The notes under the pieces were generated by a model that was not told the DNA's origin, did no database searches, and saw only the letters and a list, made by a program, of their open reading frames with translations. A stretch of DNA of 64,000 bases from a phage, in the sequence record OZ346151.1. One strand, given 5' to 3'. This document shows, in pieces, positions 52,696 to 55,534 of this stretch. A program made the translations under genes and the position numbers. Within the stretch, counting starts at the first letter, position 1. Each line of letters starts with the position of its first letter.

Positions 52696-52941
52696 ATGAA
52701 AAGCAATAAAGGTTATAACGGTTACAAAAACAAAACTCATTGGAATGTAAGCCTTTGGATTAATAACGATGAGTCATTGTACCGGTTGGCCCAAGGATTT
52801 ATTAACGCTAATGCTAATCGTAATGATGCGGCGCGGGATATGATGCTTTTTCTGGAGCTAACCGGACAAGATAAGACCCCGGACGGCTTCAAGTACAGCA
52901 CTACGGCGATCCGTGCCGCGATGGTTGGAATGAAACACTAA
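52696..52941 (+). CDS. hypothetical protein (81 aa)
   Basis: AGAAGAGGTAAACACC then ATG. Confidence 0.45.
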   Translation: MKSNKGYNGYKNKTHWNVSLWINNDESLYRLAQGFINANANRNDAARDMMLFLELTGQDKTPDGFKYSTTAIRAAMVGMKH

Positions 52942-53259
52942 AAGCACATAGCCGCCAGATCTCAGAATTTACGTACGCTCACCAGTCTATAGCCTGCTAA
53001 GTATTTATTCCAACCATAGAATAACGGAATAGTCAATACCTGCATAAAATAATTATTCGTGTAAACTGCATAACATAAATCGGCTAGGATGTCAACATTT
53101 TTCGTAAACAGCTCGAAATTATAACGGTGAGTTATAATAAACAGAGAAATCTTTAGTCGTCTAATGTTTACTGTACATTACTATACTGACTGGAATCATT
53201 AGATGACTAAGAGAAAGATAAGAAATCATTAACAATGCAATTGTTTTATTCGTAACAAT

Positions 53260-53454
53260 AAGGCAACTATGCAAACGGATGGCATGGCGCGACGGAGTCG
53301 CGACATAATATAAAAGCAGTAACCATCACCCCCGTGATAGTTTGTCTGCAAACTATTAATCAGATCATAGTTGCCTTGTATTTAGTTAATCATGACATAA
53401 CAAGCAAGGCAACTATAGATCTGCTAATAGTTGCCCTGCTTTTATATTATGTCA
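53260..53454. repeat. nested inverted repeats forming a large imperfect palindrome
   Basis: 18-bp perfect inverted repeat GACATAATATAAAAGCAG at 53302-53319 and 53437-53454 enclosing the 12-bp inverted repeat ATAGTTGCCTTG / CAAGGCAACTAT (53367-53378, 53405-53416); the AAGGCAACTAT motif occurs 4 times in alternating orientation. Confidence 0.55.
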
Positions 53455-54984
53455 TAGATTATTAGCCTGTTAATTGTTAGTCAGTCAAATCAACAACGTT
53501 ATCATTTCAGTCTTTATTGTTGTTGATCGTTATTGTTATCATGCAAACGAATGGCATGGCTTATCATTTTTGAGTAAACAATCTATACGTGAACAGTGAG
53601 GCATGCAATAGTAAGGGCGGGAATAATGAGAGTGTAAACTGTCAAGGGTAATGTCAATTATATCAATCGTGTCAGTTATGTCACCATTATGTCAGCAGAG
53701 TTTTTCTCCTCTTTGTCAAGTGCTGCATGCCCACACAAATAGTAAGAAATATAATTGTTATGTGCGTAAACAGTAACTCATGTTATCAATCCCTGTATGT
53801 ATCGCCAGTGGTGCGCATAATGGGTATTATGTTAAATTGCCCGTAATGATAATGGTTCTCACAATGATAGGTATTCTCATTCCCCCACACAAAATAGATT
53901 GCAAATGTTGTGCCACTATGTGAACGGCCTCACCTATTAATTTGCCTCACTGCCTCGATATTTGAGAATTATCATAAGAATGAGAAGTATTCCCATTTCG
54001 TCCGCCTGGCAGCACTCCAGTCGCTACGGCTCAGAACAGGGCAGAATTGTGTCCATTCAGATATTTCTGTCTGGCTCTTCAGGTCTGTGTGGGAAAAGTC
54101 CACCTCTCTGGCGGGGCATGGGGTCATGACGGGAAAATTGCAGGTCAATTAAAAAATTTACGTGGTGTATGAAGCGCTCTTCAGGTAAGGCATGTATTAT
54201 GGGATGAAACCCTCTTCAGGCAATGATATTTGTGGGTGTGATATTTGCTGGAAAGCCAGATATGACGGGACTCCCGGCGGGGCAGGGGTAGTACAGACAG
54301 GGGAAATATGGAGGATGTGGTTAGGTGAATTGATCAGACAGGTAGAGTATGGAATATGTTACAGGTATGTTAAATAGGGCGGCTGAATATCTGTAGGATT
54401 TGTGTGTAAAATCAAAGACTTAAGTGGTGTTGTGGTATTTTCTATAAATAATTCAAGTTTAATAGGTAATATTTGTCTCTATTCGCTTTGTGTGGTAAAC
54501 AGATTCAGATGAGATTGGTTTACAAGCGTATACATAATATACAAATTAAAGATACAAGAAACCCCCCTCCCCCTTCGGCTACCATTCACCTTTTCCTCTG
54601 ACTGGTACTTAAACACTTATTCAGACTCTTCAGGTTATCACCCATATATCATATGGCAGTGACTGGTGTCCTCCGGCCCCTCTTTCGTCACCCGTCCGCT
54701 TCGCCATGCTAATGCCATAGCCAATGGTTCGGTTGTTCACCCTGTTCACTCAGGTGTATCTCCATACCCCTTCAAAACGAAGAGAACAGAAAACCCGAAT
54801 TACTCGGTAAAAGAAAAGAGAAGAACTTAATTTTATCAGGATAGGCAAGAATGTCAAGGCATGACTGCTCACTAAACAAGCAAACAGTCATGTGTGGGAG
54901 GTAAGTGATTGTGGTGGTAGGAAATTTAGTTGAAAGATGTGTTATAGGTGCTTCCAGCACTTTAGCCGGGCAGCTAATTGTGTG

Positions 54985-55200
54985 TCAGTCCAGCGGTTCA
55001 TCCTCTACTTCACTGAAATCAATGTTCATGGTCTCTTCCCAACCATCGATCTCAGCACAAGAGTGGAGTTCTTTAGGGTTTACTCCTAAAGCCTCAGCAA
55101 CAGAGTCTATATTTAACACCTCTGGCAGGTATGATTCATCAAATTCAAGGTAAATCAGGCCACGAGTGTTGTCAGCTCCACCAAATATTTCTATCTTCAT
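54985..55200 (-). CDS. small acidic protein (71 aa)
   Basis: ATG start; last gene of the leftward small-gene array. Confidence 0.4.
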   Translation of the reverse strand: MKIEIFGGADNTRGLIYLEFDESYLPEVLNIDSVAEALGVNPKELHSCAEIDGWEETMNIDFSEVEDEPLD

Positions 55201-55321
55201 AAAATCTCCTCTGGAAATGAGAGTGTGAACAGGGTTTTATACGTCCCAATGCACAGGAATTATGCACGTTTTCCTCTTCAGGCCATGCTTTAGCATGAGG
55301 AACCTGTGTGGGCTCGGTGCT

Positions 55322-55534
55322 TCATAGTCTACCACCTCTGAACTCTTCGTGCTCAGGCATAATAGAGAACCAGATATCTACGATGTCCTCCCACGTCAGG
55401 TCATCAGCCTCAGGATCTGTCTGGGACGAAGATGAAGAGTCCTCAGAATCTAAGTTTTCCTCTTTAACTGGCTCATCCAAGGGACATATGGTCACTCCTT
55501 CGGATGTCTCTTCAGATGCATGTGTGTTGATCAT
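55322..55534 (-). CDS. small acidic Ser-rich protein (70 aa)
   Basis: ATG start overlapping the stop of an upstream small TM ORF. Confidence 0.4.
   Translation of the reverse strand: MINTHASEETSEGVTICPLDEPVKEENLDSEDSSSSSQTDPEADDLTWEDIVDIWFSIMPEHEEFRGGRL

Follow-up and report, generated by a model that had tools for sequence, protein, structure and literature searches.

What does the large palindrome in the non-coding stretch of an rV5-like phage do, and why does it lie where it does? The DNA considered here is a 64,000-nucleotide stretch of sequence record OZ346151.1 (hereafter the window), and the phage that it comes from is an rV5-like coliphage of the genus Vequintavirus, with a 137-kb double-stranded DNA genome. 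An initial annotation of the window placed a nested palindrome between convergent transcription units, in a region with no convincing open reading frame, and offered a replication origin, a resolution or telomere-like site, a packaging signal or an operator cluster as candidate roles. The region is indeed non-coding: the small ORFs over the core are broken by 1-nt indels in relatives, and the rV5 paper, which also remarks a change of skew there, marks the palindrome region as non-coding. In the collection of papers searched, there was no earlier account of the palindrome, an origin or a transcriptome for Vequintavirus.

Ten flanking ORFs, searched against Pfam and PHROG, comprise unknowns and one transcription-regulator gene, ~3 kb from the palindrome, with no recombinase, initiator or protelomerase domain among them, and a tRNA/tmRNA scan returned zero hits. 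The 81-aa gene on one flank is a DUF7249 gene, a widespread mobile small gene, and the 79 loci fetched through it, mostly from unrelated phages, were uninformative on the palindrome. On the opposite side, a 71-aa gene that was followed by tblastn toward other genera is confined to Vequintavirus. An ultra-conserved block at 54530-54823, folded as RNA, is unexceptional (z = -0.76).

The repeats themselves are largely as first described. The 18-bp inverted repeat is present and perfect, its right arm starting one base before the 53437-53454 originally assigned to it. With arms 116 nt apart, it is the sole spaced inverted repeat of at least 15 nt in the whole 64-kb window, and the chance of a perfect 18-mer inverted repeat within 400 bp anywhere in 64 kb is ~4e-4, an estimate that assumes uniform base composition. 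The 12-bp inverted repeat enclosed by it is likewise present and perfect (ATAGTTGCCTTG at 53367-53378 and CAAGGCAACTAT at 53405-53416). The palindrome is nested, as had been claimed, but not concentric: the outer dyad falls at 53377.5 and the inner at 53391.5, a separation of 14 bp on account of which a single concentric cruciform made of both repeats was dropped as a reading. The four motif copies in alternating orientation that the annotation reported hold for the 9-mer GGCAACTAT, which is absent from the rest of the 64 kb; AAGGCAACTAT is exact at 53260 and 53406 on the plus strand and at 53367 as its complement, the fourth copy, at 53427, matching at 10 of 11 positions. The longer motif ATGCAAACGRATGGCATGGC does occur twice, at 53269-53288 and 53541-53560, the second site being roughly 10 bases away from the ~53533 first given.

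Several of the parts listed in Table 1 carry more than one signal or an internal order of their own. The terminator-like site on the plus strand has its T-tract in the right arm, which also contains, read on the minus strand, the extended -10-like motif TGACATAAT. The long hairpin consists mostly of two 34-nt units, 60 bp apart. Many relatives have an insert of 48 bp in the hypervariable spacer, immediately beside the right arm, which is GC-rich and made of three hairpins. The short repeats beyond it begin with GT(A/G)AACAGT-type units at a period of ~16 bp and go on to TGTCA/TTATGTCA repeats spaced by ~9-19 bp, which end exactly at the boundary of the terminal repeat.

Table 1. Features of the palindrome region, in window coordinates (DTR, direct terminal repeat).
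Feature	Position	Strand	Description
Direct repeat, copy 1	53269..53288	+	ATGCAAACGGATGGCATGGC, preceded by outlying AAGGCAACTAT at 53260-53270
Small flanking hairpin	53289..53301		GCGAC-GGA-GTCGC, kept along with the core
Whole Y-shaped (three-way-junction) element, 152 bases	53302..53453	-	Minus strand folds better
Left arm, 18-bp repeat	53302..53319		GACATAATATAAAAGCAG; 5' half of closing stem on plus strand
Short hairpin	53321..53342	-	Minus strand AACTATCAC-GGGG-GTGATGGTT; side away from terminal repeat
Long imperfect hairpin	53348..53435		Holds the 12-bp repeat and three of the four GGCAACTAT copies
Plus-strand intrinsic-terminator-like site	53402..53449	+	15-bp hairpin with one mismatch, -19 kcal/mol, then TTTTATATT
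Right arm, 18-bp repeat	53436..53453		CTGCTTTTATATTATGTC; perfect complement of left arm
Hypervariable indel-rich spacer	53456..53540		Identity 0.26-0.6, against >0.9 in flanks
Direct repeat, copy 2	53541..53560	+	ATGCAAACGAATGGCATGGC
Variable-copy short repeats	53565..53694		Between element and terminal repeat
DTR equivalent	53695..54006		By homology to Gotham; physical ends in relatives

That the large palindrome is real, as the initial annotation held, is borne out by folding and by shuffling, the structure lying far beyond chance. The 18 bp of the arms form the closing stem of a Y, with the short hairpin and the long imperfect hairpin as its two branches. The minimum free energy of the element is -72.7 kcal/mol for the minus strand and -65.7 kcal/mol for the plus strand when folded as RNA, and -47.4 and -46.5 kcal/mol, respectively, when folded as DNA. 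Folding z-scores run from -11 to -13 (~-12) for RNA or DNA and for either strand, and 0 of 200 shuffles fold as well as the element. In its 5'->3' direction, the favored minus strand points away from the terminal repeat. The core is 38% GC and the neighboring spacer 36%, against 43.5% for the window.

Absence of the palindrome from close relatives, which the annotation had named as the outcome that would speak against it, is not what is seen: the element is present in 118 of ~120 related records, its core being 96-100% identical in these 118 phage records. Both 18-bp arms and the motif copies are invariant among 25 aligned relatives. A covariation test within Vequintavirus is powerless, since 51 of 62 pairs never vary, and the distribution of changes between loops and stems, together with comparison across subfamilies, was therefore used in its place. 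Variable positions account for 12 of 32 unpaired bases versus 12 of 124 paired ones (Fisher p = 4e-4), and a 33-nt insertion found in rV5, phita32 and LL12 falls in the apical loop of the long hairpin. Zero copies of the element were found in the 5,426 E. coli genomes searched.

The only phage lacking the element is FV3, in which it has been cleanly deleted between the 20-bp direct repeats, with one repeat copy kept and all sequence between the two copies gone. The FV3 flanks are closest to those of YP-6, in which the element is present, and FV3 retains the outlying AAGGCAACT motif, both of which mark its state as a secondary deletion. It follows from FV3 that the element is not essential, unless the FV3 record reflects an assembly or cloning artefact.

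The position of the element becomes more telling once the genome ends of relatives are mapped onto the window. Fixed ends with a DTR are published for three relatives: in Gotham the repeat measures 459 bp and packaging starts at a fixed point (PMC7471380), and terminal redundancies of 458 bp have been described for EdH4 and HdK5 (PMC6563267). Position 1 of the Gotham DTR corresponds to window position 54006 and position 459 to ~53695, the equivalent in the window lacking 148 bp at the 53729/53730 junction. Five records start with the repeat, and two others carry it at a record end. With the DTR so mapped by homology, the element lies 241 bp from it in the window, inside the adjoining unique sequence; the distance in Gotham is 199 bp. 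The motif TGACATAAT of the right arm also adjoins the inner DTR boundary in Gotham.

The suggested link to a genome terminus is borne out insofar as the physical ends of relatives fall in the same non-coding region, but these ends lie outside the palindrome: they map 241 bp and ~553 bp from it, and none inside 53302-53453. A pac or cos cleavage site within the element was rejected, the ends corresponding to window positions 54006 and ~53695. The proposed hairpin telomere did not survive the comparison, as the ends of relatives are open and terminally redundant, with a DTR of 458-459 bp. A resolution site of the telRL/protelomerase type was set aside along with it, on the grounds of arms 116 nt apart, a non-concentric interior and, again, open ends in relatives.

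The palindrome belongs to a conserved family of Y-shaped elements of 116-152 nt, in which it represents the rV5 type. Elements in alia and BME3 (both phi92-like), in phAPEC8, in Tr1 and in two metagenomic variants all have a closing stem and two hairpins; that of alia has 15-nt arms and a 116-nt interior, the same length as in the window. The traits common to the family are an interior of ~80-117 nt and a perfect, AT-rich closing stem of 15-18 bp, and the window element shows them, with 18 of 18 stem pairs, its 116-nt interior and the Y fold. The closing stems are perfect over the outer 15 bp in 6/6 lineages even though the pair type differs at 12 of these 15 positions, and compensatory change is seen at eight pairs within the phi92/phAPEC8 group. 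A covariance model, R1, built from eight Stephanstirmvirinae sequences only, all of them phi92/phAPEC8-type elements with no rV5-like ones among them, has its sole match in the window at exactly 53302-53453 (20.8 bits, E 0.0045, E-values being rough; background scores are 10.3 bits or less). It recovers every element-bearing Vequintavirus locus and leaves FV3 unmatched. It scores both strands alike and is therefore silent on orientation. In IMG/VR, the pattern GCTAATAATA-N(90-120)-TATTATTAGC yielded seven new matches with weak folds (-12 to -35 kcal/mol), which were rejected as chance and serve as negative controls.

In alia the DTR equivalent occupies 1364-1704, 303 nt 5' of the element, so placed from a single PhageTerm-based record of the phi92 group, BME3, which has unexplained sequence duplications. 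The phi92-like phages agree with the window in distance and orientation relative to the DTR, a comparison that covers the rV5-like and phi92-like groups, these being the ones with a mapped DTR among those that bear the element. The AACTATC..GATGGTT hairpin, which forms the apex of the short hairpin in the window element and is common to the phi92-type element, is on the DTR-distal side in both groups. In rV5-like and phi92-like phages alike, then, a few hundred bases of unique sequence separate the element from the DTR, and its orientation is constant. This fixed place and orientation mark a feature of the genome-end or concatemer-junction region as opposed to an ordinary intergenic palindrome, and the structural match at the same place in phi92-like phages, with a further one present in phAPEC8-like phages, makes the element probably a signal for handling genome ends.

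As to the form in which such a signal might act, the same strand folds better in 6/6 lineages, the margin being 7-23 kcal/mol under RNA parameters and 1.3-6 kcal/mol under DNA parameters. This strand has more G than C, and it holds 2-8 G.U/G.T pairs versus 0-2 on the other. A one-strand folding preference in every lineage points to a folded single strand rather than to a double-stranded binding site. The best explanation, which we put forward tentatively, is a strand-specific folded-DNA signal for replicating or processing the terminal repeat, by a mechanism that we infer as follows. The acting form would be a folded single DNA strand, the one with its 5' end at the nearby terminus. Each concatemer junction holds one DTR copy, whereas two go into every packaged genome, so that a second copy has to be made, probably by strand displacement. 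The three-way junction would fold once the DTR region becomes single-stranded in that copying; alternatively, it would fold on the lagging-strand template when a fork departs from that end. The folded junction could then serve as a structure-specific entry or priming signal, and synthesis begun at it would proceed back through spacer and DTR as far as the terminus, restoring a duplex terminal repeat. In the rV5 lineage, the DTR-proximal arm and the adjoining hairpin may double as a plus-strand Rho-independent terminator, which would probably halt transcripts of the terminal gene cluster ahead of the repeat.

Several observations weigh against a folded-DNA signal. Unless its record is artefactual, FV3 dispenses with the element. 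A DNA hairpin would be less expected to conserve G.T mismatches, and a strand bias rich in G.U/G.T pairs is a classical RNA signature. Alia has a sigma-70-like promoter upstream of the element, and the window has promoter-like sites at 53473-53446. The proposed orientation gets no support from the covariance model, and covariation like that of the closing stem could also arise if two inverted protein-binding sites evolved in concert.

Some of the same evidence favors a structured non-coding RNA transcribed from the minus strand, away from the repeat, whether regulatory, a decoy or a packaging RNA like the pRNA of phi29. We consider this unlikely, though the strongest of the competing accounts. 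The favored strand has the 2-8 G.U pairs and, with RNA parameters, the 7-23 kcal/mol advantage in all six lineages that a functional RNA would show, and one-sided changes in the phi92-group alignment lead to G.U in seven pairs versus A.C in one. The promoter-like sites in the window lie upstream on the minus strand (53473-53446, and TGACATAAT at the repeat boundary), and the alia promoter, TTGACT-18-TATTAT, predicts a start at most ~20 nt from the element. Against such an RNA, consensus scans detect neither a sigma-70 promoter nor an intrinsic terminator signal that is common to all element lineages: the phAPEC8 element has no upstream promoter, the surroundings of Tr1 have no promoter at all, phi92-group elements have no flanking terminator, and the single terminator-like match, in phAPEC8, sits inside the element. 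In many rV5 relatives, a GC hairpin resembling a terminator directly precedes the element on the favored strand. The only conserved -10-like motif is inside the arm, and a transcript started from there would begin too late to include the 5' half of the closing stem, the most strongly conserved and co-varying part. Rfam, searched with the whole window at gathering thresholds and with 52900-55400 at E up to 5, returned nothing relevant. Loops of 3 nt, present in several of the hairpins, are in our judgement more typical of DNA hairpins.

That the structure is only a Rho-independent terminator or insulator, possibly bidirectional, which stops terminal-cluster transcripts before the repeat and keeps antisense transcripts that cross the junction out of those genes, strikes us as improbable, even though part of it does look like a terminator. 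The plus-strand hairpin is followed by the U-tract UUUUAUAUU and matches the Rho-independent signature; it is annotated as a terminator in the Murica and Alma records, and it is the first plus-strand terminator-like site past the last gene in the window. The minus strand also matches as a hairpin with a T-tract, though more weakly (-11.3 kcal/mol, 5 nt before the U-tract), an A-tract and a T-tract stand on either side of the structure as in bidirectional terminators, and relatives have additional terminator-like hairpins inserted beside the element. Yet the perfect 18-bp closing stem contains the T-tract itself and sequence past it, so that the stem cannot form before termination and termination fails to explain the stem. 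The long-range pairs are perfect, yet the local terminator hairpin is mismatched. The phi92-, phAPEC8- and Tr1-like elements keep the fold with no flanking U-tract or terminator match; the signature, not being kept in the alia, phAPEC8 and Tr1 homologues, fails as an explanation of the conserved features. ARNold predicted other terminators in Gotham and zero at the palindrome, and relatives already possess one straight after the last gene. Equally improbable, to our minds, is a double-stranded recognition site for a small terminase (packaging), a repressor (operator cluster) or a structural DNA-binding protein, which would act through ATAGTTGCC and TTATGTCA. Within 450 bp there are four copies of ATAGTTGCC and five of GACATAA/TTATGTC where 0.04-0.07 would be expected, the motif copies are invariant in relatives, TGACATAAT is at the inner DTR boundary in Gotham as well as in the right arm, the phi92-group elements have at their center the near-invariant palindrome CTTGCAATTRTTGCAAG, with 1-2 variable positions, and a transcription-regulator gene is ~3 kb off. 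Strand-biased folding in all lineages would be unexpected of a duplex site, however, and stems that differ between lineages in sequence remain perfectly complementary; DNA ends are not cut inside the element, and FV3 packages its DNA without it.

The proposal of a replication origin in this AT-rich repeat and palindrome region has very little to commend it. The core and spacer are AT-rich relative to the window, repeats and palindromes are abundant, and the rV5 paper remarked the change of skew. But the cumulative GC skew at ~54.5-55 kb is maximal, not minimal, the polarity to be expected from a terminus or from convergent transcription; DnaA boxes are unenriched, with zero inside the element, IHF sites are also negative, the ten flanking ORFs include no adjacent initiator gene, and FV3 does without the element. 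Least probable of all is a selfish or neutral insertion, that is, a mobile palindromic element with a 20-bp flanking duplication that is useless to the phage. The 20-bp direct repeats at its borders, the resemblance of FV3 to an empty site, and the gain and loss in the region of further short, GC-rich hairpin insertions of 33 and 48 bp would fit. The element is nevertheless single-copy, with no second copy in the window and none in complete E. coli genomes; homologues are found at the same place in other subfamilies, purifying selection on the arms is strong, and the FV3 state is a secondary deletion.

The folded-DNA signal preferred here has partial counterparts in known systems. In T7, too, terminal repeats must be duplicated, a hairpin-containing intermediate has been found, and the models have been summarized (PMC4281155). 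As in T7, a short DTR has to be doubled from one copy per concatemer junction, with an inverted repeat or hairpin no more than a few hundred bp away and short repeat arrays beside it. However, the inverted repeats near the T7 repeat are 10-12 nt, as opposed to a 152-nt three-way junction; T7 is a podovirus with its own polymerase, whereas rV5-like myoviruses apparently use the host RNA polymerase (sigma-70-type promoters); and the hairpin-ended intermediate is one described for T7. A further counterpart is found in the single-strand initiation signals (ssi) and single-strand origins (sso) (the G4 complementary-strand origin, the f1 minus-strand origin, the sso of rolling-circle plasmids and Frpo of the F plasmid), which are imperfect palindromes of 100-200 nt, active only as one folded strand in one orientation, conserved in structure more than in sequence, and dispensable but advantageous. 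The element resembles them in its strand bias in 6/6 lineages with both DNA and RNA parameters, and in its fixed orientation to the DTR where this is mapped, but their replicons pass through a full single-stranded stage and the genome here is double-stranded and 137 kb long. With the inverted terminal repeats (ITRs) of parvoviruses and AAV it has in common a long closing stem around two hairpins, a length of ~125-150 nt and a tie to genome ends and DNA synthesis. AAV ITRs, however, are GC-rich self-primers that form the extreme ends of a single-stranded genome; the present element is internal (~550-700 bp from the end), single and not at a 3' end, with an AT-rich closing stem.

The pRNA of phi29 is likewise a strand-specific three-way junction of ~120-170 nt near the genome end, with its paired 5' and 3' ends as closing helix; the element differs in having no Rfam match (the pRNA model being included) and no conserved promoter or terminator. 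To our knowledge, rV5-like phages package by terminase with no known need for RNA. Rho-independent terminators offer a plus-strand hairpin followed by a U-tract, with the A-tract and T-tract on either side, but the element is ten times larger than needed, it has the U-tract inside its closing stem, and its homologues have no flanking U-tract. Finally, T5 has near its genome end a large non-coding region of repeats, inverted repeats and palindromes that is conserved in relatives (bioRxiv 10.1101/866236). Here, too, a large repeat- and palindrome-rich non-coding region lies near a genome end. The T5 region, however, is within a 10-kb terminal repeat and holds eight ordered DnaA boxes, whereas here DnaA boxes are unenriched and the element stands outside a repeat of ~460 bp. 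We know of no two-step injection in rV5-like phages.

How a DTR is copied at concatemer junctions is only partly understood, even for T7, and we know of no studies of the process in myoviruses. The element provides a concrete, mutable cis-site at which models of repeat duplication, priming or packaging can be tested, with its distance and orientation to the repeat fixed in the two subfamilies in which the repeat is mapped and with the element present in a third lineage. It also marks the true genome ends in many rV5-like records deposited in circularly permuted form, and it identifies the 'non-coding box' of rV5 as the genome-terminus region. There may be some relevance to the rebooting or engineering of therapeutic-candidate phages, in which terminal cis-elements must stay. 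The fullest statement of the idea, that a cis-acting strand-specific fold, of DNA or, less likely, of pRNA-like RNA, regenerates the short DTR at each junction in rV5-, phi92- and phAPEC8-like myoviruses, is one that we regard as doubtful yet worth stating. If true, it would give these phages a dedicated structure for end replication or maturation, of a kind undescribed in tailed phages outside the T7 hairpin hypothesis.

The palindrome is real and strongly non-random. All the repeats described in the initial annotation are present, with their coordinates slightly shifted, and the window has no long spaced inverted repeat apart from the 18-bp one. The 18-bp and 12-bp repeats are not concentric, their dyads lying 14 bp apart, because the 152-nt segment folds as a three-way junction. 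As RNA, this segment has a folding energy of -72.7 kcal/mol on the minus strand and -65.7 kcal/mol on the plus strand (-47.4 and -46.5 kcal/mol, respectively, as DNA), with z-scores of -11 to -13. A host-derived or multi-copy mobile element was also considered and rejected, since neither E. coli genomes nor the rest of the window contain a copy.

Repeats and predicted structural parts of the palindrome, and of the interval between it and the terminal repeat
Feature	Position in window	Remarks
18-bp perfect inverted repeat	53302-53319 / 53436-53453	
12-bp perfect inverted repeat	53367-53378 / 53405-53416	
GGCAACTAT		four copies, orientation alternating; no further copy in 64 kb
20-bp direct repeat ATGCAAACGRATGGCATGGC	53269 and 53541	
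Three-way junction: closing stem		18 bp; from folding
Three-way junction: short hairpin	53321-53342	from folding
Three-way junction: long imperfect hairpin	53348-53435	from folding
Interval between palindrome and terminal repeat		hypervariable spacer, second direct-repeat copy, variable-copy short repeats
Variable-copy short repeats		GTRAACAGT-type units of ~16 bp, then TGTCA/TTATGTCA repeats, the last ending exactly at the repeat boundary

The region 52900-55000 is matched at 88-96% identity by 122 phage records, all of them rV5-like coliphages of the genus Vequintavirus. About 18 of these (MG0656xx, at least one flagged UNVERIFIED) carry 'Campylobacter phage' names on Vequintavirus genomes near-identical to those of coliphages, and are probably contaminants or mislabelled. 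For rV5 itself, a 'non-coding' box lacking ORFs is shown separating genes 163 and 164, no origin was found, and circular permutation of the genome was assumed (PMC3606486). Several relatives' GenBank records start or stop less than 1 kb from the element. Gotham is reported to have 459-bp terminal repeats, with a packaging start identical in all virions (PMC7471380) and the repeat annotated at both ends of its record, and EdH4 and HdK5 have terminal redundancies of 458 bp (PMC6563267). The repeat opens five records (Gotham, EdH4, HdK5, ECP2309, YN3) and lies at a record end in Pr121LW and ECP2303. Position 1 of the Gotham repeat maps to 54006 in the window and position 459 to about 53695; by this homology, the 2-kb 'convergence region' constitutes the region of the genome terminus, or concatemer junction. 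The fixed ~459 bp repeat of the three end-mapped isolates sits in the rV5 non-coding box (window 52942-54985), and many deposited rV5-like records have therefore been opened at arbitrary positions. In the rV5 genome paper these genomes are taken to be circularly permuted, and headful packaging is reported in one recent paper.

The palindrome lies within unique sequence, 241 bp from the inner boundary of the repeat in the window (by homology) and 199 bp in Gotham, whose boundary has ...CTTGTC on one side and TGACATAAT on the other; TGACATAAT recurs in the palindrome's right arm. Two functions proposed in the initial annotation fall away here: as to a replication origin, GC skew peaks at this site, and there is no enrichment of DnaA boxes and no initiator gene in the vicinity, while a hairpin telomere conflicts with the open, terminally redundant ends of relatives.

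The terminal region has further features of its own. The ~16 bp short repeats at 53565-53694 (TGTAAACAGTnnnnnn) differ in copy number between close relatives (comparison sequences L001, L081-L094), with roughly 3 copies in the window versus at least 10 in typing phage 4, and a small palindrome, TGTCA joined to GACA, straddles the terminal repeat's inner boundary. Between 53729 and 53730 the window lacks a 148-bp segment of the terminal repeat that is present in 16 of 16 relatives compared and carries the -10-like TGTATAAT; no obvious microhomology is seen at this junction, and the window's repeat equivalent is about 312 bp as opposed to 459 bp. In unique sequence beyond the terminal repeat, four identically oriented copies of CTCTTCAGG are present (54075, 54177, 54212, 54626; about 0.2 expected), each side of the repeat having its own repeated motif. 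Also beyond the repeat is a non-coding block (54548-54900) that is about 99-100% identical among relatives, and hence more conserved than the palindrome, with a strong minus-strand sigma-70 promoter (TTGACA-16-TAAAAT with TG, 54857-54830) directed toward the genome end. Its folding as RNA is not unusual (z = -0.76), and the block may be either a transcript running toward the end or a signal in the DNA. The final gene ahead of the non-coding region (52696-52941, 81 aa, DUF7249) stands where relatives have a 139-aa gene and a terminator, and appears to be a mobile small gene, since homologues occur on many unrelated phage contigs.

The functional site suspected in the initial annotation is kept in close relatives (118 records, with FV3 the sole exception), its core at 53289-53455 being 96-100% identical across them. 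Both arms and every ATAGTTGCC copy are invariant in an alignment of 25 sequences, and variable positions are enriched at unpaired sites (12/32 versus 12/124, Fisher p = 4e-4); with 51 of 62 pairs never varying, pair-by-pair covariation within the genus is powerless. The apical loop of the long hairpin carries a 33-nt insertion in rV5, phita32 and LL12. Small GC-rich hairpin modules are gained or lost in the AT-rich region (comparison sequences L001, which is rV5, L090, L105, L083, L084, L091, L093, L094); the 33-bp apical-loop insert has a related copy elsewhere in YP-6, a 48-bp triple-hairpin insert adjoins the right arm, and the modules look like miniature mobile or recombining palindromic units.

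In FV3, a single copy of the 20-bp direct repeat remains, and the intervening sequence, element included, is gone. Because its flanks are closest to those of YP-6, an element carrier, and the outlying AAGGCAACT motif is retained, this state is, on sequence grounds, a secondary deletion between direct repeats. FV3 thus shows that viability does not depend on the element, unless the FV3 record is an assembly or cloning artefact.

Homologous elements occur outside the genus. The phi92-like BME3, of another subfamily, has a 342-bp terminal repeat by PhageTerm (PMC12210895). Within its terminal non-coding region, 117 nt that form two hairpins are enclosed by a perfect, AT-rich inverted repeat of 15 bp. 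Its relative alia has an interior of exactly 116 nt, equal to that of the window, and 303 nt separate the terminal-repeat equivalent from the element. The same architecture, with interiors of 82-100 nt, is found in phAPEC8, Citrobacter phage Tr1 and two metagenomic variants; the comparison of terminal-repeat position takes in the window and alia. The metagenomic variant L112 is rV5-like, with hybrid arms GACATAATAACGCTGAG. The outer 15 bp of the closing stem, the part compared, are perfectly complementary in 6/6 lineages, while pair type changes at 12/15 positions; compensatory change affects 8/45 consensus pairs in the phi92/phAPEC8 group. The two subfamilies share an apex, AACTATC..GATGGTT, in the hairpin facing away from the terminal repeat, and the phAPEC8 element adjoins a gene annotated as similar to an rV5 protein, homologous to the 139-aa gene found ahead of the element in rV5 relatives. 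A covariance model built solely from eight phi92/phAPEC8-group sequences has 53302-53453 as its sole match in the window (20.8 bits, E about 0.005); with filters off it matches all element-bearing Vequintavirus loci (17-23.5 bits) and gives no match in FV3 (at most 8.4 bits). Where the same 10-nt arms turn up by chance in IMG/VR, the sequences fold weakly. As judged by these comparisons, the element is conserved in two phage subfamilies, with matching position and orientation, and is tied to the genome terminus.

Some peculiarities of these records deserve mention. In that of BME3 (L107/L108, PP239276), an 861-bp unit of terminal repeat plus palindrome is present about twice, and the annotated direct terminal repeat and the terminal redundancy of the record itself are 72-73 bp out of register; the unit is single-copy in other Justusliebigvirus records. 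The duplication is probably an artefact of record construction, the alternative being a real tandem duplication. In alia (L109), a 36-nt unit, CCCTGGAGG...ATTATCATTTGCAT, occurs at the repeat boundary and twice nearby (1671-1706, 1477-1512, 1903-1938), and GAATGATTATCATT recurs downstream (2539-2616); these boundary-associated repeats are analogous to the window's TGTCA repeats.

The better-folding strand is the same in 6/6 lineages and, where the repeat position is known (window, alia), runs 5' to 3' away from the terminal repeat. With RNA parameters it is favoured by 7-23 kcal/mol, and with DNA parameters by 1.3-6; it has more G than C, and forms 2-8 G.U/G.T pairs versus 0-2 on the opposite strand. 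This bias argues against a cruciform and makes a site recognized purely as duplex improbable. The modelling points instead to one folded strand, RNA or single-stranded DNA, as the functional form. A structured RNA would satisfy the bias, yet we consider it unlikely: there is no Rfam match, and consensus scans find no promoter upstream of the phAPEC8 element or anywhere around that of Tr1, nor do they find a terminator flanking any phi92-group element. On the favoured strand, many rV5 relatives also have a terminator-like GC hairpin directly upstream of the element, and the sole conserved -10-like motif lies inside an arm, so that a transcript from there would lack half of the closing stem, the most constrained part. 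That the element is only a terminator is about as improbable as the duplex site, even though the rV5 lineage has a plus-strand hairpin of -19 kcal/mol followed by TTTTATATT, a site so annotated in Murica and Alma. The U-tract is itself within the closing stem, the long-range pairs are perfect whereas the local hairpin has a mismatch, and homologues keep the fold without flanking U-tracts; on this comparative evidence, termination cannot be the conserved function.

We tentatively favor, as a possibility, a folded-strand signal for regenerating the terminal repeat. A concatemer junction would hold one repeat copy against the two needed per packaged genome, so the repeat would have to be copied. 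Models for such copying in T7 invoke strand displacement or synthesis initiated by primase, and an intermediate containing a hairpin has been observed (PMC4281155). On the strand that has its 5' end at the terminus, the element is located 3' of the repeat. This strand would be displaced, or would serve as lagging-strand template for a fork moving away from the end, and the element could act on it as a structure-specific priming or loading signal. Synthesis primed there would run back over spacer and repeat to reach the end, the element's position being exactly that required to regenerate duplex repeat. Such a mechanism would fit the bias toward one strand, the constancy of orientation and distance, and a fold better conserved than its sequence; it would also fit dispensability, as other priming sites could substitute, less efficiently.

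The closest parallels include the T7 concatemer-junction hairpin, T7 also having short repeat arrays adjoining its repeat, and single-strand initiation signals (G4, f1, sso, Frpo). The T-shaped terminal repeat of AAV is a parallel in geometry, phi29 pRNA in geometry and location, and the T5 injection-stop region (bioRxiv 10.1101/866236) in being non-coding, terminal and rich in repeats; the element is not a demonstrated member of any of these classes. We found no published description of it in the searchable literature, and existing annotation covers just the terminator-like sub-hairpin, in two records. We rate the element as belonging among terminus-associated palindromic cis-elements, and it offers a specific handle on the regeneration of short terminal repeats.
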